From: Bifidobacteriaceae bacterium
Lineage (GTDB): Bacteria; Actinomycetota; Actinomycetes; Actinomycetales; WQXJ01
NCBI GenBank assembly: GCA_031278675.1
Contig: JAITJY010000082.1
Location: 1-32,209 of the forward strand
Direction of reading: 5' to 3'
Length of the DNA stretch: 32,209 nucleotides
A program made the translations under genes and the position numbers. The notes under the pieces were generated by a model that worked only from the letters and a program-made list of their open reading frames with translations, did not search any database and was not told where the DNA came from. Shown here in pieces: positions 18,892 to 32,209 of this stretch. Position 1 is the stretch's first letter. Each line of letters starts with the position of its first letter.

Positions 18892-19478
18892 GTGAGTCAG
18901 CCACCTGACGGAAGTTTTTTCGGACCGCCCGCGCCTGGCGGTTACCCGATGGGAACCGATGGCCGGCAGCCAGCCCTGGCGCCGCCATCCCCGGGGACGT
19001 GTTCGCCCACCCCCAGTTCGCCGCGCCCGCGCCGCAGCTACCGCCTCCCCTCCCGCCCAAGGCCCGCAGGCGGCGCGTCCCGATCGCGATTGCCGCCATC
19101 ATCGCAGTGGTCGCAGCGACGGTCGGTGGGTTTCTGATCTGGCGCTCGGGCAGCGGCGACCTGGTCGAGTACTGCGCCGCGCACAAGAGGGGCGTCGACC
19201 GTCCCGGTATCACCTTGTTCGATAAGCAAGCCCTTGAGGAACTCATGGCCGCCGCGCCCAGAGAACTGAGGGGAGACTTCAAGGCTTTGCGCGCGTTCGT
19301 CGAGGAAGAACCCGATTTGGTTGCCCTCATCGAGGCGGCTGACACGCTGACCGAATCCGAGAAGGCGGCCGCGAATAAACTCCTAGACGACGCCAACAAG
19401 AAATACGGCCAGACGGAAGCGATGACGCGCATCGCGTACCACATCGTCGATACCTGCAAAGACGGCAAACCGAAGTGA
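18892..19478 (+). CDS. Pro-rich single-pass membrane protein, apparently split by a 1-nt frameshift near 18989-18996
   Basis: The strong RBS serves 18892 (MSQPPDGSFFGPPAPGGYP...), but the RRRR+TM+helical domain with a Cys pair lies in the 18999-19478 frame. One extra base in CCCCGGGG fuses them. Confidence 0.6.
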
Positions 19479-19838: not shown

Positions 19839-21053
19839 TTACTCTACTGCGGTGGAGAGCTGGAAGATCGGGAAGTAGAGGCAGATCAGGATGCCGCCGA
19901 CGATCGAGCCGACAAAGACGATCAGGATCGGCTCAATGATCGAAGTGATCGAAGCGGTAGCATTCTGGACTTCGTCATCATAGAACTCGGCGACCTTTTC
20001 CAGCATGGAGTCCAAAGCGCCGGCGTCCTCACCGACGGAGACCATCCGCGAGATCATAGGGCCGAAGATCGGCTCCTCACTGATGGCCTTACCCAACGCG
20101 CTACCCCTTGTCACCTGCTGTTTCACTCGCTCAACAGCTTGGGTGACCACAATGTTGCCCGAGGTCTCACCCACAATATCGAGGGTCTGGACAATCGGGA
20201 CGCCCACCCGCGACATGGTCGCGATAGACCGCGACAAGCGCGCCAGGGAGACCTTCAACATCAAGCCGCCAACCAGGGGTATCTTCAGCTTGATCGGGTC
20301 GACCTTCTCGCGCACAGCCAGATCGTTGCGGTGGTTGGCCCACCACCAGCCACAAAAGGCCACCACAAGCGCCAGCGGCAGGCCACCGATCTTGAGGAAG
20401 TTCGACAGGCTGACCAGGATCTGGGTCGGCAAGGGCAACTCCTTGCCCAAGTCACTGAAGATCCCCTCGAAGATGGGGACAATGAACAGGAGCATGGCGA
20501 TGACAACAAAAAACGCGAAGATCAGCACCACCGCCGGGTAAACCATGGCCGCCTTGATGGCGCGCCGCAGGCGCAACTCGCCCTCTAGCTGTTCAGCCAC
20601 AGATGACAGGACCGCGTCGAGGTAACCGCCGGCCTCGCCCGCCCGGACCATCGCCAAGATGACGGGCGAAAACATCTTGGGATGCTTCGCCAAGGCATCC
20701 GCCAAGGTCCAACCAGTCTCAATATCCCCGGCCACCTCGCGGAGCACCTTTTGCAGCGCCAGAGAAGACGACTGATCAGCGATTGCCGTAATGGACTGGA
20801 GCAAGGACAGCCCGGCGTTGACCATGGTGGCCAACTGGCGAATCATCACCGCCACGTCCTTCGGCTTAGCGCGGCTGCCGCCAATGTTGATGTCCCTTTG
20901 GAGCAGACTGGTAGGGGCTTCCCGGATATCGATTGGGGTCAGCCCGGATTCGCGCAGGTGACGCGCCACGGTCTGGGCATCGGGGCCGTCAACCTTACCG
21001 CTCTGGGTAGCACCGCCGGCTATGACGGTGTATTCGAAGGTCTTGGTCGCCAC
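19839..21053 (-). CDS. pilC: Type IV pilus platform protein (GspF/PilC family)
   Basis: Two T2SSF repeats: RQLATMVNAGL, MVRAGEAGG.L, AMVYP, LPLPTQIL, MVSVGEDAGAL, IEPILIV..YFPIF. Confidence 0.93.
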   Translation of the reverse strand: MATKTFEYTVIAGGATQSGKVDGPDAQTVARHLRESGLTPIDIREAPTSLLQRDINIGGSRAKPKDVAVMIRQLATMVNAGLSLLQSITAIADQSSSLALQKVLREVAGDIETGWTLADALAKHPKMFSPVILAMVRAGEAGGYLDAVLSSVAEQLEGELRLRRAIKAAMVYPAVVLIFAFFVVIAMLLFIVPIFEGIFSDLGKELPLPTQILVSLSNFLKIGGLPLALVVAFCGWWWANHRNDLAVREKVDPIKLKIPLVGGLMLKVSLARLSRSIATMSRVGVPIVQTLDIVGETSGNIVVTQAVERVKQQVTRGSALGKAISEEPIFGPMISRMVSVGEDAGALDSMLEKVAEFYDDEVQNATASITSIIEPILIVFVGSIVGGILICLYFPIFQLSTAVE

Positions 21054-21059
21054 TGGACC

Positions 21060-22211
21060 TCACATCCTTCCAAAGGGGTTGTTCAACCCCGAAACCCCCT
21101 GCTGTACCCGCGCGGACCGGCCCAGCATGCGGGCAAACTCATCCGGCTGACGTGAGGTTTCGAGGCCTTCTTCGAAGGTGATGTCACCCTTGCGGACCAG
21201 TTCGGCCAGCGACTGGTCCAGCGTGTGCATGCCTTCTTCGCTCCCGGTGTGCAGCGCCGAATAGATCTGGTGGATCTTGTTCTCGCGGATCATGGCACGG
21301 ATGGCTGGGGTGGCCCGCATCAATTCGGTGGCCACCACCCGTCCCTTGCCATCGGCGCGGCGGCACAACGTCTGCGACAAGACGGCCTGGAGGGTGATCG
21401 CCAGTTGCGAACGAATCTGGTCTTGGTGGTTCGCGTCGAACTGATCCACCAGACGGTTGATCGATTGAGCGACACCCTGGGTATGAAGCGTGGCGAACAC
21501 CAGGTGGCCCGTCTCAGCGGCCCGCAGGGCGGTCTCCATGGTCTCCCTGTCGCGCAGCTCGCCCACCAAGATGATGTCCGGGTCTTGCCGCAAGGCGTGC
21601 TTCAAGGCTTCCGCAAACGTCAAAGTGTCGACGCCGATCTCGCGTTGCGCTACCAAGCAACGGTTCGAGTTGTGCTGGAACTCGATCGGGTCCTCAATGG
21701 TCAGCACGTGGCCAGACCGCGTCCGGTTGGCCAAGTCAATGATGGCTGCCAAGGTAGTGGACTTCCCGCTGCCGGTGGGCCCGCAGACCAGGACCAGGCC
21801 ACGCGGCAAACCCGCGAAGGTCTTGACCGCCCCCGGGATCCGGAGTTCATCAAGCGACCTGATCACGTCCGGGATCACTCGGAATGCGGCCGCAATAGAT
21901 CCGCGGTCCCAGTACAGGTTGGCGCGGAACATGCGCCCGGACGGGACCTGGCAGGAATAATCCAGTTCCAAGGTTTCGTCGAACTTCTGGCGCTGCGTGC
22001 GCGTCAGCATGCCGACGAGCTGCTCATAGAGCACCTCCTCGCCCGGCGCGGTGAAACCCGGCAACGGCGACAGTTGTCCTGACAACCGGACAATAGGCGG
22101 CAGCAGGGCCGTCAAGTGCAGGTCAGACGCCCCCAGCGCGGCTGATTCCTCTAAGGCCTGGACCAGATCCAGGGTTGTGTCTTCGCCATAGGCGTTCGGT
22201 GCAGCGCTCAT
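21060..22211 (-). CDS. pilT: Type IV pilus retraction ATPase
   Basis: GASDLHL, Walker A GPTGSGKST, TIEDPIE, ALRQDPDIILVGELRD, His box HLVFATLHT, AIRNLIRE-like AIRAMIRE. Confidence 0.93.
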   Translation of the reverse strand: MSAAPNAYGEDTTLDLVQALEESAALGASDLHLTALLPPIVRLSGQLSPLPGFTAPGEEVLYEQLVGMLTRTQRQKFDETLELDYSCQVPSGRMFRANLYWDRGSIAAAFRVIPDVIRSLDELRIPGAVKTFAGLPRGLVLVCGPTGSGKSTTLAAIIDLANRTRSGHVLTIEDPIEFQHNSNRCLVAQREIGVDTLTFAEALKHALRQDPDIILVGELRDRETMETALRAAETGHLVFATLHTQGVAQSINRLVDQFDANHQDQIRSQLAITLQAVLSQTLCRRADGKGRVVATELMRATPAIRAMIRENKIHQIYSALHTGSEEGMHTLDQSLAELVRKGDITFEEGLETSRQPDEFARMLGRSARVQQGVSGLNNPFGRM

Positions 22212-23887
22212 GCGACCACCCTCAACAGTTCTTCGATCGAGGTTTGACCTTGGGCCACTTTGGCCCAGCCATCTTGACGCAGCGTGATCATGCCTTGTTC
22301 ACGCGCTAATTCGCCTAACTCGCGGGTCGACTTCCGCAGAGCGGTCAGGTGTTCCAATTCCTTGCTTACCGTCATCACTTCGTGGACCGCCATCCGGCCC
22401 TTGAATCCGGTCTTGGCGCAAGTTGAGCAGCCAACCGGGCGGTAGAGCTGCGGCGGGGGCGGCTCACGGAAAATCCAGTCGGCCAGCATCATCTCGGTTT
22501 CGACTTCGCTCGGCGCATACGGCTCCCGGCAGCGTTCACACAGGCGCCGCGCAAGCCGCTGGGCCACCACACAGTCCAGCGCCGAGGCCACCAAGAACGG
22601 CTCGATCCCCATCTCGGTGAGGCGAGTGACGGCCGATGGCGCGTCATTCGTGTGCAGCGTCGACAAGACCAAGTGGCCGGTCAAGGCCGCTTCGACCGCG
22701 ATCTGGGCCGTTTCGCCGTCACGGATCTCGCCGACCAGGACCACGTCCGGGTCAGCCCGCAAAATGGACCGGAGCGCGGCCGCAAAAGTCAGGCCAGCCT
22801 TCGGGTTGACCTGAATCTGGTTGATCCCGCTCATGCGGTATTCCACCGGGTCCTCGATCGTAATCACGTTGACCTCAGGGCGGGCAATCTCACGGAGCGT
22901 GGCGTACAACGTAGTGGACTTGCCGCTACCAGTGGGGCCCGTCGCCAGAATCATGCCGTACGGCTTGCTATAGGACTCCTTATAGCGTTCGAAGGAAACC
23001 TCAGAGAAGGACAGTTTACGCAGGTCAACCTGCACGGCCGCAGTGTTCAAAATACGCATGACGACCTTTTCGCCCCACACCGTGGGGAGTGTCGCCACCC
23101 GCAGATCCACATCATTACCTTCCACATTGACCGAAATACGGCCATCTTGCGGTTTGCGCCGTTCCGCAATGTCGATGTCAGCCATGATCTTAATCCGCGA
23201 AATGACCTGCGACTGGATCGACTTAGGCGCAGACTGCATCTCATGCAACACGCCATCAATCCGGTAACGCACCCGGACATCTAGTTCTTCCGGCTCCAAG
23301 TGAATATCGGAGCAGCCGTCATGGATCGCCTGCGAGATCAACAAGTGAACCCACCGGACCACCGGCGAATCCTCCTGGATCACATCCGCGATCGTGACCG
23401 TCCCCTGGCGCTCCTCCTCACGGACCGACGAATCCAGCGACTGCCCAATCGAGTCGATCTCCGAATCAGACCGGATATAACGCGTGATCGACCGTTCCAA
23501 GGCACCGCGTTCGGCCACGGCCGGGATCACCTGGGCCCGCAGATAAGACCGCAGATCATCAATCGCCACAATGTTGCCCGGCTCCGCCATCGCCACCACG
23601 ACCGAGTCGCCCTCCCGCGAAACGGGCAACAGCAAGTGCCGTCGGCACACCGCACCTGGCACCGCACCGGCCACCCGCTGGTCAACCGGGAAGTCATCCA
23701 GGTCAATGAACCGCAGCCCGGCCGCTTCGGCCAGGACCGGAATCAGGTCTTCTTCGCGCAGCGCGCCGCTGGTGACAAGGGCTTGGCCCAGCGTGACACC
23801 TTCGAGTTCCTGAGTGCGGGTGGCCTCAGCCAACTGGTCATGAGAAACCAGGCCGCGCGACAGCAGGGTCTGTTCCAGAGCGGTCAT
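22208..23887 (-). CDS. pilB: Type IV pilus extension ATPase (GspE/PilB family)
   Basis: MshEN-like N-terminus, SDIHLEP, RYRIDGVL, PQDGRI, GPTGSGKST, LRADPD, tetracysteine CERC...CSTC. ATGA overlaps at both ends. Confidence 0.94.
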   Translation of the reverse strand: MTALEQTLLSRGLVSHDQLAEATRTQELEGVTLGQALVTSGALREEDLIPVLAEAAGLRFIDLDDFPVDQRVAGAVPGAVCRRHLLLPVSREGDSVVVAMAEPGNIVAIDDLRSYLRAQVIPAVAERGALERSITRYIRSDSEIDSIGQSLDSSVREEERQGTVTIADVIQEDSPVVRWVHLLISQAIHDGCSDIHLEPEELDVRVRYRIDGVLHEMQSAPKSIQSQVISRIKIMADIDIAERRKPQDGRISVNVEGNDVDLRVATLPTVWGEKVVMRILNTAAVQVDLRKLSFSEVSFERYKESYSKPYGMILATGPTGSGKSTTLYATLREIARPEVNVITIEDPVEYRMSGINQIQVNPKAGLTFAAALRSILRADPDVVLVGEIRDGETAQIAVEAALTGHLVLSTLHTNDAPSAVTRLTEMGIEPFLVASALDCVVAQRLARRLCERCREPYAPSEVETEMMLADWIFREPPPPQLYRPVGCSTCAKTGFKGRMAVHEVMTVSKELEHLTALRKSTRELGELAREQGMITLRQDGWAKVAQGQTSIEELLRVVA

Positions 23888-25305
23888 CGCACTCCCCTCG
23901 GCATGGCGAGGCCCAGAGACTTGAACACCGCCTGTGTGTGCTCGTAGTTATCACGGATCAGGTTCCTGGACGCATGGTTGATCCGGCCCAGGATCTCCTC
24001 CATGGGCACCCGGTCAAACGGACGCGCTTCCGCGATACACGCTTTAGCAAGTGAACGCAGCGCGTTCAATTCCTCATGCGACCGGTTGAGTTGCTGATCA
24101 ATCGGCCCAACCAGCGGCCCTAACTGCGCAGACACACCGAAACGCGGCACCTGAATGCGCCACGTGGTCAAGAACTTCTGGAACTGCCCCAAGTGCGCCC
24201 CTGCGGATTCGACCTGGGCGCCCACCTCGTTCAGGACACCTTGGGCCCCTTCCAACCCGGAAGCTACGGCCTCTACGTCATCGGCCAACGCGTAACACAA
24301 CAGCGGAACGTACAACAAGCCCTCCGGCGGCGCGAAACCGTCCAGGTTCTCCAGGGCAAAGTTGATCACCATGTCGTTGTGTAGCTGCGCCAACGCGATC
24401 CTAAAACGCAACTCCATGACGCCGCGCCGGACCTGGGACAAACGATCCGGGAGCGGCGTGATAACACGTTCGGCGCCGGCGCCAACCCGCGTCATCGCGT
24501 TCGCGGTGCTCGCCAGCGTGGGCGCATGGGCGGCCACCTGCTGCGACGCATTCAACGAAACCTGCGTCACCTCCGCCAATGCCGCCACCGTACCGCCAAG
24601 CTGCGCAGACCCGGCCTGCAACGCCTCGGCCAAGTGCTGCAACGAATCGAGGCGGCCCAGCAGATCGCCGATATGCTCATCCAGCGCGACCGCATTGTTC
24701 AAAATATCGGCTATATCGCCGTGCGCCTCCGGCCGGTAAGTCCGGCGCGCAGACAATACCACCCGCGTCTGGGTCTCGGCCGGCAAAGCCGTATACATGA
24801 ACTCGTCATAGGACGGGAAACCGGCCCCGGCCAGCATTTCTGCGAGTGAGGTCAGGCCCGCCGTCGCAATACCGGAGCGGTTGGCACCATGATTCTTCGC
24901 ATTATGCTCAATGGGCAGAGCCTGGCCGTAAAGGCCCGTCGCGGCGTTCCACAGCGGGTCGAACCGAGGCGAGGAACGCACCGACAAAAAGCCGCTGCCC
25001 ATCGGCGTGACAGTCGCGAAGACCTGGTAATCGAAACCGTCCTTGGCCAGATTCTTCACGTACGCGGCGAACGGTTTCCCGCCCAACAACGTGTCCCACA
25101 TGAGCTTGAAAGCGCCACCCGGCATCAATGGATTGCGGATCAGGTTGTGTGGCGCACCCATCAACTCGTCCCGAGGAAAGGCGGACAGCCGCGCAAACAC
25201 AGTGTTGGCCGCTGTGATCACGCCTTTCCGGTCGGTGCAAGAGAAGAAGAGTTCATCCACCCCGACGCGCCGTTCCTGCCCGACGCGGGTTTTGCGGTCA
25301 AGCAT
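23884..25305 (-). CDS. Aer-type PAS domain protein with helical C-terminus, no TM and no recognisable MCP hairpin
   Basis: FFS.TD.KG.IT.AN..F..LS.F...EL.G.PHN.IR.P.MP...FK.MW.TL..GK....YVKN.AKDG is the Aer/CetB PAS pattern. ATG 25305 overlaps the GTPase stop. Confidence 0.85.
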   Translation of the reverse strand: MLDRKTRVGQERRVGVDELFFSCTDRKGVITAANTVFARLSAFPRDELMGAPHNLIRNPLMPGGAFKLMWDTLLGGKPFAAYVKNLAKDGFDYQVFATVTPMGSGFLSVRSSPRFDPLWNAATGLYGQALPIEHNAKNHGANRSGIATAGLTSLAEMLAGAGFPSYDEFMYTALPAETQTRVVLSARRTYRPEAHGDIADILNNAVALDEHIGDLLGRLDSLQHLAEALQAGSAQLGGTVAALAEVTQVSLNASQQVAAHAPTLASTANAMTRVGAGAERVITPLPDRLSQVRRGVMELRFRIALAQLHNDMVINFALENLDGFAPPEGLLYVPLLCYALADDVEAVASGLEGAQGVLNEVGAQVESAGAHLGQFQKFLTTWRIQVPRFGVSAQLGPLVGPIDQQLNRSHEELNALRSLAKACIAEARPFDRVPMEEILGRINHASRNLIRDNYEHTQAVFKSLGLAMPRGVR

Positions 25306-25903
25306 TGCGCAGCCTATCCATAGCCACGCGGACAACCGCCACCAGGGCCTGTTTGGCCGCTTCTTTCGAGCGGGCATCCGAATACATGATTGGGATGTCA
25401 GACCCTACCGCCAAAGCGTCCCGCACATCTTCCAACGTGTGGCGGGCAATCCCATCGAAACAGTTGATCACAACCACGAACGGGATATTGCGTGATTCAA
25501 AGTAGTCGACCGCAGTGAAACCTTGGTCCAAGCGGTCGGTGTCCACCAGCACCACGGCGCCAATCGCCCCGCGTACCAGGTCATCCCACATGAACAAGAA
25601 CCGTTCCTGGCCGGGGGTGCCGAACAGGTAGAGCCACAAGGATTCGCCCAGGGCAATCCTGCCGAAGTCCATCGCTACGGTAGTGGTGTCTTTTTGCGCG
25701 GCCCGCCGGCCGGCATCGTCCACCCCGAGCGAATGCTCTGTCATATCGGCTTCCGTGTTCAACGGCTCAATGTCAGAGACTGCGCCGATAAACGTGGTTT
25801 TGCCCACAGCGAAGCCGCCCGCCACCACGATCTTGACGACCGTTGGCGGCTTAGGCCTTGTCACGGCGCCCCCTTGGGTCTGTTCATAGCTCGGATATTG
25901 CAT
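25298..25903 (-). CDS. cvnD: Conservon small GTPase (CvnD / MglA-related ATP/GTP-binding protein)
   Basis: KIVVAGGFAVGKTT, TTTVAMDFG, LYLFGTPGQERF.FMWD, NCFD, DAR. 20-nt overlap with the DUF742 gene. Confidence 0.92.
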   Translation of the reverse strand: MQYPSYEQTQGGAVTRPKPPTVVKIVVAGGFAVGKTTFIGAVSDIEPLNTEADMTEHSLGVDDAGRRAAQKDTTTVAMDFGRIALGESLWLYLFGTPGQERFLFMWDDLVRGAIGAVVLVDTDRLDQGFTAVDYFESRNIPFVVVINCFDGIARHTLEDVRDALAVGSDIPIMYSDARSKEAAKQALVAVVRVAMDRLRNA

Positions 25904-26816
25904 TCAGAACACTCTCCAGTAACTCCAGGGTTTGTTCGCGGCTGACGGCTCCACCGTTGTTGATACCACCAGAGCCGGCCACCGTGTCGTGGACCAACAG
26001 CACACCGGATTCGGCTAAATCCGAAACCAGGACCTTGACTACCCCAACCGGCAGTTTTAGGTGGGCGGAAACCTCCGCGACCGTCAAATAGGCCGTAGCG
26101 ATTTGCCGGACAATTGCCAATTCCTCGGGCGAGAGCCCCTTACCTTTTTCGGCCAGCCACTGCTGGTTGGCCACCTCCAAAATTGATTCCAAACGAGTGT
26201 CGGTGGTCGCCTGGGTTCGCCCCCGCGTCACCACGAACGGCCGGACCGAGGAAATGTCCTCTTCCCCGCCCGCACCGCCTTCTGCCGCCCCGTTCGGCTG
26301 CTCCGACCGGCCCGCTCCGCTGCCCCCAGCGGCGCCTCGCACCACGGGTAGGGCTCCCGACGGCGGCTGAGCCGAAGAACGAGCTACCCCTAAGCCCGAT
26401 CCCGACCCGCCAGACTGCCGGCCCCCCGACGCTAAGCCCGCTGACGTCCCGCTCGGCGCGTATGACGCCGGCCGGGAAGTTGGAGCCGGTTCGGCCTGCG
26501 CCCGGACCACCGGACCGGACCCAGAAACCGGTCTGCTTGATTCGTGTTGCGCTGCGAACGCTTCGGCAGTTGGCCCCACCAAGACCGGTTCGGGTGGTGT
26601 GTCGGCGGTGCGCACCGGTCTGCGCCGCTGGACCTGGATTGGGCGGCCGCCGCGTGGCACCACTTGCCGTTTCGCCCCTGGCGGTCCAGCCGGCTCGCCG
26701 GGCGCCGGCACATGGATGTTGGCCGGGTTGGACAGCGAGTCGAAAGACCGTTCAGGCGTGCCGGGTGGACCGGCGGGCCGGGCCCGCACCCGGTTCTGGG
26801 GGATCTCTGGGGTCAC
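25884..26816 (-). CDS. cvnC: Conservon DUF742 protein (CvnC) with long low-complexity N-terminal extension
   Basis: VRPFVVTRGRT, LSPEE..I, TVAEVSAHLKLPVGVVKVLVSDL, LLESVLNAI. GTGA overlap with the roadblock gene. Confidence 0.9.
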   Translation of the reverse strand: MTPEIPQNRVRARPAGPPGTPERSFDSLSNPANIHVPAPGEPAGPPGAKRQVVPRGGRPIQVQRRRPVRTADTPPEPVLVGPTAEAFAAQHESSRPVSGSGPVVRAQAEPAPTSRPASYAPSGTSAGLASGGRQSGGSGSGLGVARSSAQPPSGALPVVRGAAGGSGAGRSEQPNGAAEGGAGGEEDISSVRPFVVTRGRTQATTDTRLESILEVANQQWLAEKGKGLSPEELAIVRQIATAYLTVAEVSAHLKLPVGVVKVLVSDLAESGVLLVHDTVAGSGGINNGGAVSREQTLELLESVLNAISEL

Positions 26817-27268
26817 ATCCCACCTCGCACGGTGCCTGTCGTGGGCAACGAATCACGCATCTGGGCAATTAGGGCTGGCGTGAGGAAGGTTTCGGCGCGG
26901 CCCACCAGGGTCGCCATCTCGTAGCCCACCAGGCCCACATCGGAATCCGGCTCGCACAGCACAGCCAGCACCGATCCGTTCGAGATGGACATGAGCATCA
27001 CGAAGCCTTCCTCGTATTCGATCACGGACTGGCGGTCGCGCCCAATACCCAACTCTCGGCCGGCGCCCCGGGCCAAGGATGACATACCGGAGCAGATCGC
27101 TGCCATGATGTCTCCCACGGTCCTGTCAGCGCCGCCGGACATGGTCATCAGCAAGCCGTCGGCGCTGACTACCACGCCTAGACGGGCGCCTGGGGTGGAG
27201 CGGACGAACGAGTCTAGGAGCCAGGTCAGGTCCTGCCTGTTCTCCCCATGCTGGTAATTGGCGGTCAT
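26813..27268 (-). CDS. cvnB: Conservon roadblock/LC7 protein (CvnB / MglB-like)
   Basis: LTWLLDSFV..TPG, VVVSADGLLM, AAICSGMSSLA.G, DVGLVGYEMA.LV. RBS AAGGAGG. Confidence 0.93.
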   Translation of the reverse strand: MTANYQHGENRQDLTWLLDSFVRSTPGARLGVVVSADGLLMTMSGGADRTVGDIMAAICSGMSSLARGAGRELGIGRDRQSVIEYEEGFVMLMSISNGSVLAVLCEPDSDVGLVGYEMATLVGRAETFLTPALIAQMRDSLPTTGTVRGGM

Positions 27269-27333
27269 CTGAGTCCTCCTTGGATGCGTGAGCAGTGTGT
27301 CCCTTGCGGCGTTGCGGGAGTGTATTTCACGTC

Positions 27334-30300
27334 TTACCCTTTCCCAGCCGACGCGCGGGATCCGCTGCGGCCACGCCTAGTGCCGATTTGGAAGGCCGAT
27401 AGTGCGGAACGGATCTTATCCGCATCACGCGCCTTCGGCGGTGAGGTGACTGGTGGAGCGACAGCCGGAACGGACGATGCCCCCGTCTGTCTACGAGCCA
27501 AGCTCGAAGCCGGTTTGGATTCGGTCCGCTCCGGCTTGTAGGCGGCTAGCCCAGCGAGTTCCGCCAGAGCCTCTTCCTGGATTGAGGCTTTCAGCGCGAT
27601 CGCCGAACCGGCGATCGGGGATCCGAGGTCCGGTATGGCGAGCGCCGAGTTGCCGCCTCCGGGCTGCATCATGGTGCCGCCTGCCGTGAAGCTCCCGGTG
27701 TGAGGGAACGCCGGGCGGGCCGATGGCGCATCGACCCTGGACGGGGCAGCCACCTGGGTGGCGGGCCGGCCGCCGACTCCAGTCGGGGCGACCTGCCCTG
27801 GGGTCATGGTTCCCGGAGTCATAGTTCCCGGAGTCATGGTGCCAGGAGTCATGGTGCCAGGAGTCATCGCTCCCGGTGCTATGACTCCTGGAGTCATAGT
27901 CCCTGGGCTCATAGTCCCCGGGGTCATGACACCGCCAGGCGCGGCAACGGCGGGCGGCGGTTTGAATTGCACCGCGCCCTCGGTTCCACCGCCAGGGCTG
28001 AACTGGCCCGCCACGGGACCGGGTTGGGCAGGGCCACCCACGCCCGCCGGCCCGCCTGGGACCAGAACGCCCGGACCGGCTTGCACCGGACCGCCGGGGC
28101 CGCCTGGGGCCGGGACGCCTTGGAGTGGACCGCCGATGCCGCCCGGGCCACCTGGACCGCCGGGTCCGCCTGGGGCCGGGATACCTTGGGCCGGGCCTCC
28201 CGGCCGTGGTATCTGACCTGGTGGAACACTGGCCGGGCCGGGCAGTGCCCCTGGCAACGGGGCGCCCGGTCCTGGACCGGGCGGACCGGGTGGGCCAGCC
28301 GGGCTGATTGGACCAGGTATCTGGCCGGGCGCCGGCACGCCGAGCGGTGGTACCGCCAACGCCGATTGACTTGGGTCGGCCTGGTCGGGAGCGGCTTGGC
28401 CGCGCGACGGCACCTGACCAAACTGGCGCAGCGGTAGCGGGCCGGACGGTGCGCGCTCCTCGCGCGGGCCACCCGCCGCACTGACAACGGGTCCCGGGCC
28501 ACGGACCGGCGGGGCAGCGCCCCGCTGAGGCAGCCCGCCGGGCGCCTGCTTCAGGCTACCCAACGGCGGGCCAGTTGGCCCTGGACGCCCAGGCTCCGCT
28601 CCATCTGAGGCCTGCCGGGCACCTGTCTGCCCGGCAGGGCCAGGCGGCTGAGTTCGCGCGCCTCCTGGCCCAGTTGGGCCACTTGGCCCCGGACGGCCGC
28701 CCCCGCCACCAGGTGGGCCGCTCGGGCCAGATGGGCCGGGCGCGCCCGGCCGTCCGGCTTGAGGCCCAGTTGAGCCGCTGGGACCGCCTGCCCCGGGCCG
28801 CGCAGCGTCCGGTCCACCCGGACCAGTTGGCGCTACTCGTCCAGCCCCAGGTCCGGTGGGACCACTGGTTCCTGGCCGCACTGCACCGCTGCTCGGTCCA
28901 CGCGAGCCATCAACGCCAGCCCCAGCGGGCGCCGACTCACCGGTGGCCTTGCCGGGCGCCACAGGACCGGGCGCTGCCGCGCCGGAACCTTCCGGGGCCT
29001 GCTTAGCCGCACCAGTCGGCGGGATCAGGCCGGGCGGAGCGGTGGCGCTGGGAGATGGCATGGCGCCGGGGGAACCCGGTACGGGCGGGAACGATTCGGC
29101 CCCGCCGCGTTTGATGGACGCCGGACGGCGCCGCACGGGCATCCGCGCGGGCTGCTCGCCGGTGGCGAGGGCTTCCGAGAAAGCAGGCAGATCGCCGGAC
29201 GATCCCGCCGTCCTGCCTGCCCGGGGAGCCGCCCCGGCACCGCGCGCGGCTGCGGCGTCTGCGAGTGGGCCCTGCCCCGCGCTCGGCGGACCGCCGGGCG
29301 CGGTGGCCCCTCTCGCTGGTGTCCCGCCGCGAGGAGTCCCACCAGGGACTGCCCCACCCACGGGGACCCCACCAGAAGCGCTCCCACCAGCAGGAACACT
29401 ACCAGGAGCACTGCCAGGAACACTGCCAGGAACACCGTCCGGGCCAGCCCCGGCGCCGCCGGTCACGGGCCGTTCAAGCACTGTGTGGCCGTCGGCCGAA
29501 TGCCGCGGCAAGGCCGCCGCAGGGTTAGCCCCTTCACCAAGCGGCGAGAACCGGGCACCCAACGGCACAAATCCGCTGGTGCGGTCCGGCCGCGCGGGAG
29601 CGGCCGCATGGGTGGTGGCAGCGGGGATGATGCCGGCGGGGGCCGAGACCGGCACATCCGTTCGGGGCCGAGCAGGCGGCGGCGCGCTCCGAGGCGGCAC
29701 ACCACTGCTTGGCGCCTGCGCCGGCTCACCGCGTTTCGGCAGATCACCAGGCGCGCTAGCGAGCTGCACCGGCCGGAAGGTCTCAGCCGTGGGCGGCGCT
29801 GCGGTCACCACGGAGGGTTCCAGGTTCGGCTGAGGCGGCAACACCAAGGCTTCCGGACCAAGCGCCGGGTGCGGCCCCGAAGCGGGCCTGTCATCCACAA
29901 GCTTCGACGGAATCCGCAAAATAGCGGTAGTGCCACGCCCCTCTTCGTTTTGACCAGGCGCGAAGCTGACCGCAGCGCCGAGGCGCGCTGCCAACCGGGC
30001 GACCACCACCACACCAAGGCGGCCGTGAGCCAGGTCTTCCGGGCCGGCCCCTTCGCGAGCGATCCGGTTGAGAGTCGCCAACTCGGCGGGGGACATCCCG
30101 ACGCCGGTGTCGGAAATGCTGACGACGACATCGCCGTGGTGGTTTGTCGCACCCACCTCGACGGCTGCCCCCTCGGGGCTGAACGCAGTCGCGTTTTCGA
30201 GCAGTTCGGCCACCAGGTGCGCCAACGGCACCACAGCATAGGACCGGATCATCGGGTCCCAATCCATGGAGATCCTGATCCGCTCGTAGTGTTCGATCTG

Positions 30301-31089
30301 CGACGATGCCGTCCGCACCACATCGGAGACCGACAACGGATCGCGGATGGCCCGCTCCGGGTCCCGCCCGGCCAGGATCATCTGCGTTTCGGAACCGCGC
30401 CGCATCCGCGCCATCAGGTTGTCCAACGCGAACAACGCGAACAGTTTGTCGGGGTCGGTTTCCGACTGCTCCAATTCGTCGAGAATCTTCAGGGCACGTC
30501 CCACCAGCGAGATCTCGCGGCGCGCCGCAGTGTTGATCGCCTGCGGAATGGCTTCTTCGAGGACCCCGGCCGCTTGGCGCGGTGGTGGGGCTTCCGGTAG
30601 CTGGTAAGCCGACTCTGCCGGCGGCTCCGACGGCGTAACAACCTGGACCTGTTGCAACTCGGCGGCGGGGCGCCGGGCAGGCAGTGCGGCCGCAGGCACA
30701 ACCGCAGGCACAACCGCAGCGGACGGCTCAGCGATGATTGAACCGAAGGGTGCGCCGGCTTCGCCACCTGGCGGGGCTTGAACCGCTACCACCTCGCTCG
30801 CAACCCCGAGCGAGCCCGCCGGCAACTGTGCCACCGGGCCCTGCGGGACGCCCTGTTGAGCGACGGGGGGCAACAGTGCCACCCCACCTCCGCCACTAGG
30901 CATGTGTCCCAAGACAGAAGCGACCTCGGAGCGGAGGTCCTTAACCCCCCGCAACATGGACACCAGGACCACCAGTGCCACAATCGCCAGGAGCGTCAGG
31001 ATCGCTCCAATTTGGACCAAATTGGGGAAGCTGGCCAAGTCGAAGAGCTGATCCAGCCCCGTCTCGGCCAGAACTTGGATAGTTCGCAT
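27334..31089 (-). CDS. cvnA: Conservon sensor-kinase-like membrane ATPase (CvnA) with very long Pro/Gly-rich tail
   Basis: One N-terminal TM; RR..SLV.R.L..LDELE..E.DPD.L..LF.LD.L..RMRR; HATPase boxes LAHLVAELLENA, ISDTGVGM, LGVVVVARLA, GTTA; family C-terminal RD....R..LS.FQ.G.RRGR. ATG 31089 by TGATG coupling. Confidence 0.9.
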   Translation of the reverse strand: MRTIQVLAETGLDQLFDLASFPNLVQIGAILTLLAIVALVVLVSMLRGVKDLRSEVASVLGHMPSGGGGVALLPPVAQQGVPQGPVAQLPAGSLGVASEVVAVQAPPGGEAGAPFGSIIAEPSAAVVPAVVPAAALPARRPAAELQQVQVVTPSEPPAESAYQLPEAPPPRQAAGVLEEAIPQAINTAARREISLVGRALKILDELEQSETDPDKLFALFALDNLMARMRRGSETQMILAGRDPERAIRDPLSVSDVVRTASSQIEHYERIRISMDWDPMIRSYAVVPLAHLVAELLENATAFSPEGAAVEVGATNHHGDVVVSISDTGVGMSPAELATLNRIAREGAGPEDLAHGRLGVVVVARLAARLGAAVSFAPGQNEEGRGTTAILRIPSKLVDDRPASGPHPALGPEALVLPPQPNLEPSVVTAAPPTAETFRPVQLASAPGDLPKRGEPAQAPSSGVPPRSAPPPARPRTDVPVSAPAGIIPAATTHAAAPARPDRTSGFVPLGARFSPLGEGANPAAALPRHSADGHTVLERPVTGGAGAGPDGVPGSVPGSAPGSVPAGGSASGGVPVGGAVPGGTPRGGTPARGATAPGGPPSAGQGPLADAAAARGAGAAPRAGRTAGSSGDLPAFSEALATGEQPARMPVRRRPASIKRGGAESFPPVPGSPGAMPSPSATAPPGLIPPTGAAKQAPEGSGAAAPGPVAPGKATGESAPAGAGVDGSRGPSSGAVRPGTSGPTGPGAGRVAPTGPGGPDAARPGAGGPSGSTGPQAGRPGAPGPSGPSGPPGGGGGRPGPSGPTGPGGARTQPPGPAGQTGARQASDGAEPGRPGPTGPPLGSLKQAPGGLPQRGAAPPVRGPGPVVSAAGGPREERAPSGPLPLRQFGQVPSRGQAAPDQADPSQSALAVPPLGVPAPGQIPGPISPAGPPGPPGPGPGAPLPGALPGPASVPPGQIPRPGGPAQGIPAPGGPGGPGGPGGIGGPLQGVPAPGGPGGPVQAGPGVLVPGGPAGVGGPAQPGPVAGQFSPGGGTEGAVQFKPPPAVAAPGGVMTPGTMSPGTMTPGVIAPGAMTPGTMTPGTMTPGTMTPGTMTPGQVAPTGVGGRPATQVAAPSRVDAPSARPAFPHTGSFTAGGTMMQPGGGNSALAIPDLGSPIAGSAIALKASIQEEALAELAGLAAYKPERTESKPASSLARRQTGASSVPAVAPPVTSPPKARDADKIRSALSAFQIGTRRGRSGSRASAGKG
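27796..27930 (-). repeat. 9 x 15-bp coding repeat (TMTPG pentapeptide) in cvnA
   Basis: VMTPG TMSPG TMTPG VIAPG AMTPG TMTPG TMTPG TMTPG TMTPG. Confidence 0.92.
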
Positions 31090-32207
31090 CAGGTGCAGAG
31101 TCCTTTCCGGCCGTCCCACGGGTAGCCCGTCTCACCGTTGGGTCCCTTGGTGGGCCACACGAAGTCTACGTAATCTTCGCACTGCTGGAGGGAAAACTGG
31201 TACTGCTTTTCGCGCGCCGGCCCGGTTACTCCGTCCCAGGGGTCCAGCAAGCGGTGGCAGCTATCGTTTGTCCTGTTCATCGCAGAGTTGGTGCAACTAC
31301 GGAACTCCCAGCCAGCAAACCAGATCTTGTGCCTGTCGCCATAGTCCCCGTCCTCCATTGAGGCTTTATGTCCCACCGCACCGCGTGGGTTATAGCCTTG
31401 GCCCCACCATTGGCCGTCCATCTTACGCCACAACACGTAGCCTTGCCCAGTCTGGACGTGCTCCACATTAACATCAAGCCGTTCGATGGGGTAGTGGTCG
31501 ATATGTTCATAGCTGGTGGTCACGCCCCAGCCGTACAAAGCGCCAGTACTCGACAGAGCCGTCATGGCCGTCAAGGCCGAAGTCATCCGGACAAACTTGA
31601 CACCAGCGGGCTGGTCCAAGTAGCCGGGGTTGCGCGCTTGCTCGCTGCTGCAATCGGACGTCGAGGTCCCGCCGCAAGCCCGGCCAATCGCCTGGATACC
31701 AGACGAACCCCAGGTCAGGACGCGGCCCGTGGAAAGCAACGCAGCCCCAAAATAAATGCCGGAGTGGACTTGGATGATGTATTCGTCGGGGTTGTTCGCG
31801 CGGAACCAGGGAGAGAGCGCTTCGGTCCGGACCGGCACTACTTTCCGCGAGCTGTCTGGAGTAACTCCCCCGGAATAAATCAGCCCGGGGCCACCTTGCG
31901 CCCCCGGCACCTCAAAGTTATCCGAGCCGCCCAGGTGCCACACTTCGCCGTTCTCCATCATGATCCAGGTTGTTTGGTAGCCCGATTCAACCTGGGTGGG
32001 CATGTAGCCCTCAATGGTCGGCGACGGCAGGCCAACGCCATCGGTCGCCAGATAAGCCACCTGGGTCGCTCCGACGCTCCAGCCACGTCCACCGTAGAAG
32101 GACCGTCCCCAGGAATAGATCCAACCTTGCTTGTCCACGGCCACGCCGCCGTAGTGCGCGGTCGAGATCATTTGGATGTTGCACAGTTCCGGCTTGGATG
32201 AGTTCCA
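31089..32207 (-). CDS. RCC1/BLIP-II-like beta-propeller repeat protein, N-terminus beyond window edge
   Basis: Frame open to the edge (WNSSKPELCNIQMIS...). Five repeats of the type I.QV.SG..F..AL...G.V..WG; several Cys pairs suggest an extracytoplasmic location. Confidence 0.75.
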   Translation of the reverse strand, partial: WNSSKPELCNIQMISTAHYGGVAVDKQGWIYSWGRSFYGGRGWSVGATQVAYLATDGVGLPSPTIEGYMPTQVESGYQTTWIMMENGEVWHLGGSDNFEVPGAQGGPGLIYSGGVTPDSSRKVVPVRTEALSPWFRANNPDEYIIQVHSGIYFGAALLSTGRVLTWGSSGIQAIGRACGGTSTSDCSSEQARNPGYLDQPAGVKFVRMTSALTAMTALSSTGALYGWGVTTSYEHIDHYPIERLDVNVEHVQTGQGYVLWRKMDGQWWGQGYNPRGAVGHKASMEDGDYGDRHKIWFAGWEFRSCTNSAMNRTNDSCHRLLDPWDGVTGPAREKQYQFSLQQCEDYVDFVWPTKGPNGETGYPWDGRKGLCT

Positions 32208-32209
32208 AG

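Follow-up and report, generated by a model that had tools for sequence, protein, structure and literature searches.

A conservon with an Aer-type PAS accessory gene embedded in a type IV pilus cluster of Bifidobacteriaceae: a candidate redox-responsive switch for the pilus motor

Introduction

Why would an actinobacterium carry a complete conservon within the gene cluster for its type IV pilus? Conservons, also termed actinobacterial G-protein systems (AGPSs), are found widely across Actinomycetota, pathogens and antibiotic producers among them, and their inputs, effectors and outputs are largely unknown. Here we analyze a locus in which the four conservon genes, cvnA to cvnD, are followed by a gene for an Aer-type PAS protein and then by the pilus motor genes pilB, pilT and pilC. 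The locus lies on contig JAITJY010000082.1 of assembly GCA_031278675.1, a Bifidobacteriaceae metagenome-assembled genome of 3.1 Mb in 448 contigs (90% complete, 6.3% contamination). The window, by which we mean the whole stretch of 32,209 nucleotides that was analyzed, is that entire contig, and the sole listed sequencing run containing it is a DNA run labelled termite gut metagenome.

We give even chances to the reading that this is a specialized conservon, equipped with a PAS accessory protein and built into the pilus cluster, that would act as a redox-sensing G-protein switch controlling the pilus motor. The motor is the most likely target of the switch because the linkage is kept across a whole genus and is seen again in a second family.

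Results

A nine-gene unit joins a conservon to the pilus motor

Nine co-oriented open reading frames (ORFs) on the minus strand occupy positions 19839-32209 of the window. They are listed here in the direction of transcription, from the RCC1-like gene to pilC.

31089..32209 (ORF 31089-32207), minus strand: RCC1-like beta-propeller protein, C-terminal 372 aa, gene cut by the contig end (Pfam RCC1_2 33.7 bits against a cut-off of 22; WD40_RLD E=3.4e-17)
27334..31089 (or 31119), minus strand: cvnA-like, histidine-kinase-like protein of 1251 aa (HATPase_c 47.2 bits, residues 298-405)
27269..27333, minus strand: cvnA/cvnB spacer of 65 nt with an AAGGAGG Shine-Dalgarno sequence 7 nt 5' of the cvnB start (direct reading; no minus-strand terminator-like match)
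26813..27268, minus strand: cvnB, Roadblock/LC7 protein of MglB type (Pfam Robl_LC7 62.5 bits)
25884..26816, minus strand: cvnC, with DUF742 at residues 188-304 (Pfam DUF742 80.4 bits)
25298..25903, minus strand: cvnD, small Ras-like GTPase of the conservon or Group 2 MglA type (Pfam ATP_bind_1 91.9 bits; TIGR00231 small_GTP below cut-off)
23884..25305, minus strand: accessory protein with a predicted Aer-type PAS domain (residues ~10-111) and a 350-aa all-helical domain (AlphaFold2 model; Aer PAS 8dik is the top fold and sequence match)
22208..23887, minus strand: pilB, extension ATPase with an MshEN-type N-terminal domain (T2SSE 463 bits; MshEN 67.9 bits; TIGR02538 616.7 bits, below the cut-off of 675.65)
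21060..22211, minus strand: pilT, retraction ATPase (TIGR01420 pilT_fam 441.1 bits against a cut-off of 319.1)
19839..21053, minus strand: pilC, platform protein (T2SSF 204.9 bits in two stretches, i.e. two T2SSF domains)

The nine co-oriented genes and the junctions between them, which an original prediction made from the sequence had described, were borne out by ORF calls and direct reading: in order, a 1-nt overlap, a 65-nt gap, overlaps of 4, 20, 8, 4 and 4 nt, and a 6-nt gap. The overlap of the cvnD stop with the PAS start, read directly, lies within ATGCTTGA. The predicted gene identities also stand, with Pfam or NCBIfam supporting the family of every gene in the unit except the PAS protein. 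The absence of an obvious internal terminator, also predicted, agrees with a scan based on an E. coli-type consensus, in which terminator-like matches stayed at background (12, against 10.6 +/- 3.5 in shuffles) and no intergenic gap contained one on the minus strand; for promoters, the scan gave a single minus-strand match, upstream of rpoB, and nothing inside the unit above shuffled background. The unit is probably co-transcribed and translationally coupled.

HATPase_c, Robl_LC7, DUF742 and ATP_bind_1, the conservon gene set, follow one another in that order on one strand, all over Pfam cut-offs, and the type IVa motor set comprises an extension ATPase, a retraction ATPase and a platform protein, with the PilB and PilC equivalog models below their strict cut-offs.

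The linkage is kept across the genus and recurs in a second family

A neighborhood survey, set beforehand as the refuting test of the original prediction, found the linkage well beyond this genome. All surveys used one genome per species, in samples of 121-401 genomes. Within the genus, the PAS gene adjoins pilB in 10 of 10 genomes, and a DUF742 gene lies beside both in 9 of 10, the tenth genome being 77% complete. Each same-genus genome has one DUF742 match, so this conservon is the only one there. Family members without PilB (G013, G014, G015 and G017) are also without DUF742 and the PAS protein.

In a second family, which holds Cellulomonas sp. ACRRI, 13 of the 121 sampled genomes have a full-length PAS-family gene, and three (G041, G080 and G149) carry the series Robl-DUF742-GTPase-PAS-PilB. 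At the locus L007 of this family (Cellulomonas sp. ACRRI), where the PAS domain scores over the PAS_3 cut-off, the module heads a differently ordered cluster (PilBTC-pilin-pilin-PilM-...). Thus, the cvn-PAS-pilB junction survived rearrangement of the surrounding pilus genes. The L007 genome also has a second, separate DUF742. Searching with a PAS-family profile gave 80 loci, of which five show the linkage (four metagenome-assembled genomes of Bifidobacteriaceae and the Cellulomonas locus); at one more locus from Bifidobacteriaceae the gene is a paralogue without the linkage. In other PilB-bearing families of the order, the cluster starts with pilB, followed by pilT, pilC and pilins, and nothing similar lies upstream.

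The conservon lies inside a larger pilus cluster

The nine genes are part of a unit that extends beyond the window into pilD, pilM, pilN and pilO. A same-genus genome (L002, PAS protein 89% identical) has the order PilD-PilM-two single-pass proteins-RCC1-like-CvnA-CvnB-CvnC-CvnD-PAS-PilB-PilT-PilC, followed by rpoB. PilD and PilM score over their Pfam cut-offs there, and the two PilN/O-like proteins are called by position, single-pass topology and weak matches only. With pilD, pilM and the pilN/O-like genes directly upstream in L002, the conservon sits inside the pilus cluster, between the alignment-complex genes and the motor genes. The window's own genome has PilM and eight N_methyl matches, three of them on the PilM contig; this contig (C104), with three pilin genes, PilM and PilN/O-like genes, breaks off at the point where the RCC1-like gene of the window should start, which suggests by synteny that the two contigs join.

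In L002 the orthologue of the RCC1-like protein is full-length (617 aa); it begins with a membrane anchor, continues with a Pro/Ala linker and ends in a Cys-rich region, which makes it an extracytoplasmic surface component. We had considered a cytoplasmic guanine nucleotide exchange factor (GEF) for CvnD, in analogy to RCC1 and Ran, which the membrane anchor and the Cys-rich extracytoplasmic body of the orthologue rule out.

PilB residues 6-54 (window 23725-23887) match the NCBIfam model NF053729, an MshE-related cyclic di-GMP-binding motif, at 36.1 bits, just below the 38-bit cut-off. PilB may have cyclic di-GMP as an additional input.

The linked CvnA lacks both sensor and histidine

The window CvnA consists of one N-terminal transmembrane helix, a DHp-like segment with asparagine in place of the histidine, HATPase_c and a Pro/Gly-rich disordered tail of ~700 aa. 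No Pfam domain other than HATPase_c was found in it, and the NIT/HAMP sensor architecture is absent from its matches. HATPase_c also stands alone in the linked CvnAs of L002 and L007 (three linked CvnAs scanned with Pfam, including that of the window), and in the linked CvnAs of L128 and L129 the N-terminal sensor region is likewise missing in the alignment. The generic, unlinked CvnA of L122, one of two generic CvnAs in the comparison, has NIT, HAMP and HATPase domains by Pfam. The DHp-like segment reads LDNL in all five linked CvnAs (window, L002, L007, L128 and L129), LDHL in both generic CvnAs (L122 and L125) and LDRA in a decayed copy from the sister genus g3. The LDHL histidine is probably H183 of CvnA8, whose own sequence lies outside the alignment; H183 is highly conserved and required for CvnA8 autophosphorylation and ATPase activity (PMC13343842). 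Judged by these features, and by a PAS gene in the place after cvnD that GAF or P450 accessory genes take in Streptomyces, the pilus-linked conservons form a distinct subtype.

CvnD, which we place in Group 2 (conservon) by gene context, has intact motifs (P-loop GGFAVGKTT, GTPGQ and NCFD), and CvnB is 99% identical in L002 and in a second copy of the module within the same assembly. At 310 aa, the window DUF742 protein is much longer than those of generic conservons (about 125-135 aa). A C-terminal CvnA block (L..AL.ELS..S.YRP...L.RR.P), a possible LPxR-type feature, aligns in L007, L128, L129 and L122, and by eye the window CvnA, which is outside that alignment, ends in a similar block.

Long disordered stretches mark two of these genes. 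The 3' two-thirds of cvnA (window 27400-29900) encode ~700 low-complexity residues rich in Pro, Gly and Ala between the kinase core and the C-terminal block, most notably at ~27780-27950, at a GC fraction of 0.74-0.77 and with tandem five-residue PGTMT-like repeats; generic CvnAs have long disordered tails too. The 5' part of cvnC (window 26270-26816) encodes a disordered N-terminal extension of ~180 residues rich in Pro, Gly, Ala and Ser.

The accessory protein has an Aer-like flavin pocket

The window PAS protein reaches no Pfam cut-off (best match PAS_4, E=0.031) and has no match to HAMP or to the signalling domain of methyl-accepting chemotaxis proteins (MCPs). Its family is large and well conserved, with members of about 450 aa that mostly carry PF08447 (PAS_3). 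An AlphaFold2 model using 18 family members (pLDDT 88, pTM 0.87) places a PAS fold at residues 10-111 and a long-helix bundle at 116-463. The top Foldseek match is the FAD-binding PAS domain of E. coli Aer, 8dik (38-41% identity, TM 0.79-0.83 on the target), followed by NifL, MmoS and LOV flavin PAS domains, and a phmmer search of the PDB also finds the Aer PAS domain (E=2.1e-18), as the original prediction of an Aer-type domain had anticipated. FAD in Aer is contacted by H53, R57, M69, W70, N85, R115 and T27 (PMC9668731). In an ungapped alignment, in which T27 is unmapped, the window protein is identical at H53, R57, M69, W70 and N85, and its R110 aligns with R115. By fold and by contact residues, we thus assign a putative Aer-type FAD-binding PAS domain, with flavin binding itself a prediction.

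The C-terminal helical domain, modelled separately (pLDDT 86), has no PDB match at E<=0.001 in Foldseek, and an ESM Atlas search with it gave no usable match. The best Foldseek TM of about 0.33, to unrelated helical membrane proteins, was discarded as meaningless. A complex prediction of CvnD, GTP and PilB residues 1-170 with the PAS partner scored 0.00 and 0.15 against a mark of 0.32; run without controls, it gives no verdict either way. No neighbor of PAS-family genes recurred in more than seven loci in a search of 53 of the 80 loci with a greedy ORF caller and BLAST clustering, a weak result because the caller missed the PAS gene in 25 loci.

The window's own genome, at 90% completeness, gave no match to MCPsignal or CheW. 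Sensory control of the pili would therefore be Che-independent, which fits what had been predicted.

PAS residues 57-62 (window 25120-25140) read RNPLMP in the same-genus pilus-linked copies, keeping R57, the Aer FAD-phosphate contact; RHP(D/E/Q)MP stands there in almost every other member of the PAS family, the linked copies of the second family included. That H58N and D60L would abolish flavin binding, an idea that goes back to older work on Aer mutants, found no support in a literature search; the contacts in the crystal structure are different ones, and all those mapped are kept.

A sister genus retains the PAS-pilB junction after loss of the GTPase set

In genus g3 of the same family, the PAS gene adjoins pilB in 3 of 3 genomes (L112 = G012, L113 = G016 and L114 = G018), in none of which were Roadblock, DUF742 or GTPase genes found. 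The G012 cluster runs PilD-PilM-x-x-RCC1-[651-aa protein]-PAS-PilB-PilT-PilC. The 651-aa protein is a decayed CvnA with 26% identity over the kinase core (E=2e-17) and no detectable HATPase. The g3 PAS proteins have lost the flavin-pocket residues and kept the C-terminal helical domain, including a WR-Q-PR block. In G011 (genus g2), the gene overlapping pilB upstream was considered as a further PAS-family member and ruled out (hhalign E=0.57).

Discussion

Our results support a model in which a specialized conservon, together with an accessory gene, has been built into a pilus cluster. Accessory proteins, such as the GAF protein CvnF and the P450 CvnE, are encoded after cvnD when CvnA has no extracytoplasmic sensor, and CvnF8 binds and stimulates CvnA8 (PMC13343842). 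By this published rule, a role of the PAS protein as input to CvnA is no less likely than one as adaptor to PilB. The scheme that we favor, whose protein-protein steps we infer throughout, starts from what is observed: which genes the locus holds and how tightly they are coupled, how far the linkage is conserved, the derived features of CvnA and the Aer-like pocket of the PAS protein. The PAS protein, a cytoplasmic one, would bind flavin and report the redox or energy state, as its conserved Aer contact residues suggest. Its helical domain would modulate the membrane-anchored, sensor-less and histidine-less CvnA, much as CvnF8 does CvnA8. CvnA would in turn bias a Roadblock GTPase-activating protein (GAP), CvnB, and a DUF742 GEF, CvnC, if they behave as in mycobacterial Mfp, where MfpD and MfpC are reported to have GAP and GEF roles. 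The balance of the two would set the GTP state of CvnD, and CvnD-GTP would act on PilB, PilT or PilC to affect extension, retraction or positioning, as MglA does in Myxococcus. A bolder version, which we hold only tentatively and consider rather doubtful, is a self-contained, Che-independent energy taxis system for pili, in which the flavin PAS protein acts through a CvnA pseudo-kinase and the GAP and GEF so that the GTP-bound GTPase directly switches the activity or polarity of PilB and PilT.

Several observations weigh against control of the motor by this module. The linkage is rare, being absent from the 382 other genomes of the order sample and from the 400 other genomes of the class sample, and most PilB-bearing families of the order run pilBTC without the module. 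The order sample of 401 genomes, searched at E<=1e-60 for the PAS family and E<=1e-150 for PilB, contains 48 genomes with the former and 123 with the latter. Outside the window's family, 24 of its 37 PAS carriers have no PilB match at that threshold, and in the 13 genomes with both, the two genes are never adjacent (5 have them on one contig, 114-300 kb apart, and 8 on different contigs). The class sample (401 genomes) has the PAS family, at the same threshold, in one other genome only, again without a PilB match. Neither a conservon nor PilBTC lies within 10 kb at 74 of the 80 PAS-family loci, which come from many orders. Genus g3 lost CvnB, CvnC and CvnD and kept its pilus genes while CvnA and the PAS domain decayed; with most families also lacking the module, it is evidently dispensable for pilus biogenesis. 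At the level of single proteins, the asparagine in CvnA might stop signalling of the kind seen in CvnA8. A sequence specialization of the linked GTPase is ruled out, because CvnD is 72% identical to one generic unlinked GTPase (62% to another), against 66-78% to linked ones. Finally, the promoter and terminator scan is weak evidence for a single transcript, since its consensus is poorly suited to actinobacteria.

The same evidence bears on three other explanations. The PAS protein could be an output adaptor, to which CvnD-GTP binds and whose helical domain docks on or gates PilB or PilT, with the flavin PAS adding a redox input at the motor and CvnA being signalled otherwise. We consider this unlikely, although PAS-PilB is the most conserved adjacency, with a 4-nt overlap in g3 as well as in the window, and all three g3 genomes retain it after loss of CvnB, CvnC and CvnD. 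The g3 proteins also retain the helical domain with its WR-Q-PR block while the PAS pocket decays, and there is a precedent in MfpA, encoded just after a mycobacterial conservon, which binds the GTP form of its GTPase (PMC4316618). However, the decayed CvnA-like gene of g3 adjoins the PAS gene as well, so g3 does not separate the models, and the occurrence of the PAS family in many genomes without PilB argues that the helical domain is no dedicated PilB binder. By sequence, the input and adaptor models are inseparable.

It is similarly improbable, in our view, that the genes are neighbors only, that is, a housekeeping conservon and a stand-alone redox sensor that were rearranged beside pilus genes, are co-transcribed with them and control, for example, gene expression or cell-envelope physiology, as conservons do in Streptomyces and Mycobacterium. 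The rarity of the linkage, the working of the pilus cluster without the module in most families and the GTPase similarity described above all fit this explanation, as does the habit of generic conservons of adjoining unrelated genes, such as the CysK/CysE-like genes that follow the conservon of L122. Yet pilus genes flank the module on both sides with overlapping stops and starts, and the cvn-PAS-pilB junction recurs in a second family with a different pilus-cluster layout. The linked CvnAs, moreover, share derived features (no sensor, and asparagine for histidine in 5 of 5), and the PilB-less genomes of the family have neither DUF742 nor the PAS protein. We find it more improbable still that the module acts on the expression of pilus genes or the timing of assembly, perhaps via a further transcription factor, rather than on the motor directly. 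Cvn8, Cvn9 and Mfp do alter gene expression or translation (PMC13343842; PMC11343762), but no DNA-binding protein is encoded in the cluster by Pfam (window and L002), and the MglA-type systems of Myxococcus and Bdellovibrio act on protein complexes, not on transcription (PMC13343842).

Compared with known systems, the locus joins two established kinds, the conservon or AGPS and small-GTPase control of type IV pili, and is not a new category. Like Streptomyces Cvn8 and Cvn9 and mycobacterial Mfp, it has the same four genes in the same order: an HATPase CvnA with a long disordered C-terminal tail, a Roadblock protein, a DUF742 protein and a small GTPase with intact P-loop, PGQ and NxxD motifs. 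It also has an extra gene directly 3' of cvnD, comparable to those for CvnE, CvnF and MfpA, next to a sensor-less CvnA, as the published rule predicts. Unlike in those systems, the accessory is an Aer-type PAS protein with a helical bundle and not a GAF, P450 or pentapeptide-repeat protein, CvnA has asparagine where generic CvnAs have histidine, and the operon lies within a type IV pilus cluster, not next to metabolic or biosynthetic genes. The MglA/MglB systems (Myxococcus xanthus with SgmX and SofG, Bdellovibrio, and Thermus MglA) similarly link a Ras-like GTPase and a Roadblock-type GAP to PilB/PilT pili. There, mglA is not near its partners in the genome (PMC4316618), whereas here the pilus cluster itself encodes the GTPase, which is of Group 2 and accompanied by a kinase-like protein and DUF742. 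None of RomR/RomX, SgmX, FrzS or a Frz/Che system turned up, although no search was aimed at RomR, RomX or SgmX.

The PAS domain, for which E. coli Aer is the closest solved structure with the mapped FAD contacts kept, differs from Aer in its surroundings, as the window protein has no transmembrane segment, HAMP or MCP signalling domain and instead a 350-residue C-terminal bundle without a PDB match; CheA/CheW partners were not found in its genome either. Regulation of PilB via its N-terminal domain is known from FimX-PilZ-PilB. As with regulators of the PilB N-domain (MshE-type cyclic di-GMP binding), PilB here carries MshEN and a candidate regulator gene lies directly upstream, but the cluster encodes no PilZ or GGDEF/EAL protein, and the upstream protein is of the PAS-helical type.

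The original prediction had known of no description of the arrangement, and full-text literature searches, which covered articles without the supplementary neighborhood tables of PMC13343842 and PMC4316618, likewise returned no description of a conservon linked to pilus genes. In the available parts of these two papers, pili appear beside conservons only as Myxococcus and Bdellovibrio background, and a 2011 survey of Gram-positive pilus clusters is without the terms GTPase, PAS, histidine kinase and Cellulomonas. What the prediction had missed is the upstream extension to pilD/M/N/O, the extracytoplasmic character of the RCC1-like protein, the sensor-less and His-less CvnA and the PAS protein as a possible CvnA input.

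A pilus-embedded conservon subtype offers an easily scored output, piliation and twitching, together with a recognizable input, the flavin PAS domain. Isolate genomes with the module are on record, such as that of Cellulomonas sp. ACRRI, so the CvnA/B/C/D signal path is open to direct study. Genomes with the full module, with a changed PAS motif around R57 and with the GTPase set lost form a natural decay series, and comparing them can help to tell which parts cooperate. If control of the motor by this module is true, small-GTPase control of type IV pili would extend from Myxococcota, Bdellovibrionota and Thermus to monoderm actinobacteria. It would also point to a way in which gut actinobacteria without flagella or Che proteins could direct their pili along redox gradients. 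Should the more doubtful energy-taxis version hold, input, effector and cellular output would for the first time be defined for an actinobacterial G-protein system, and an MglA-family switch would have been recruited to type IV pili for a second time, independently and here hard-wired in the pilus operon.

Additional observations

A second copy of the module is present in the same assembly, where cvnA(3' end)-cvnB-cvnC-cvnD-PAS-pilB-pilT-pilC is found on L001 (own contig C148, 1-9007) and contig C340, with 79% DNA identity and 75-99% protein identity to the window. The assembly also holds a second partial pilin/PilM contig. Since other same-genus genomes have one copy and the bin has 6.3% contamination, the second copy is probably from a co-binned related species and not a true duplication.

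PAS-family genes also occur elsewhere in the sampled genomes. A same-genus paralogue, 56-58% identical and with RHP intact, is found at G010:C149:27763-29112, G003:C27:37557-38873 and G006:C190:31568-32581. It lies ~12-13 kb downstream of the pilus-linked copy, by distance just past rpoC; it is not at that place in the window. In family f12 of the order sample, four genomes (G193, G246, G262 and G326) carry a PAS-family gene and pilB on one contig at a nearly constant distance of 270-300 kb, a conserved synteny without adjacency.

On the 3' side of pilC, the window continues with a convergent ORF and then rpoB, rpoC, rpsL, rpsG, fusA and tuf. The convergent ORF (18999-19478, plus strand) encodes 159 aa with one predicted membrane helix and no Pfam family, and it marks the 3' end of the pilus unit.

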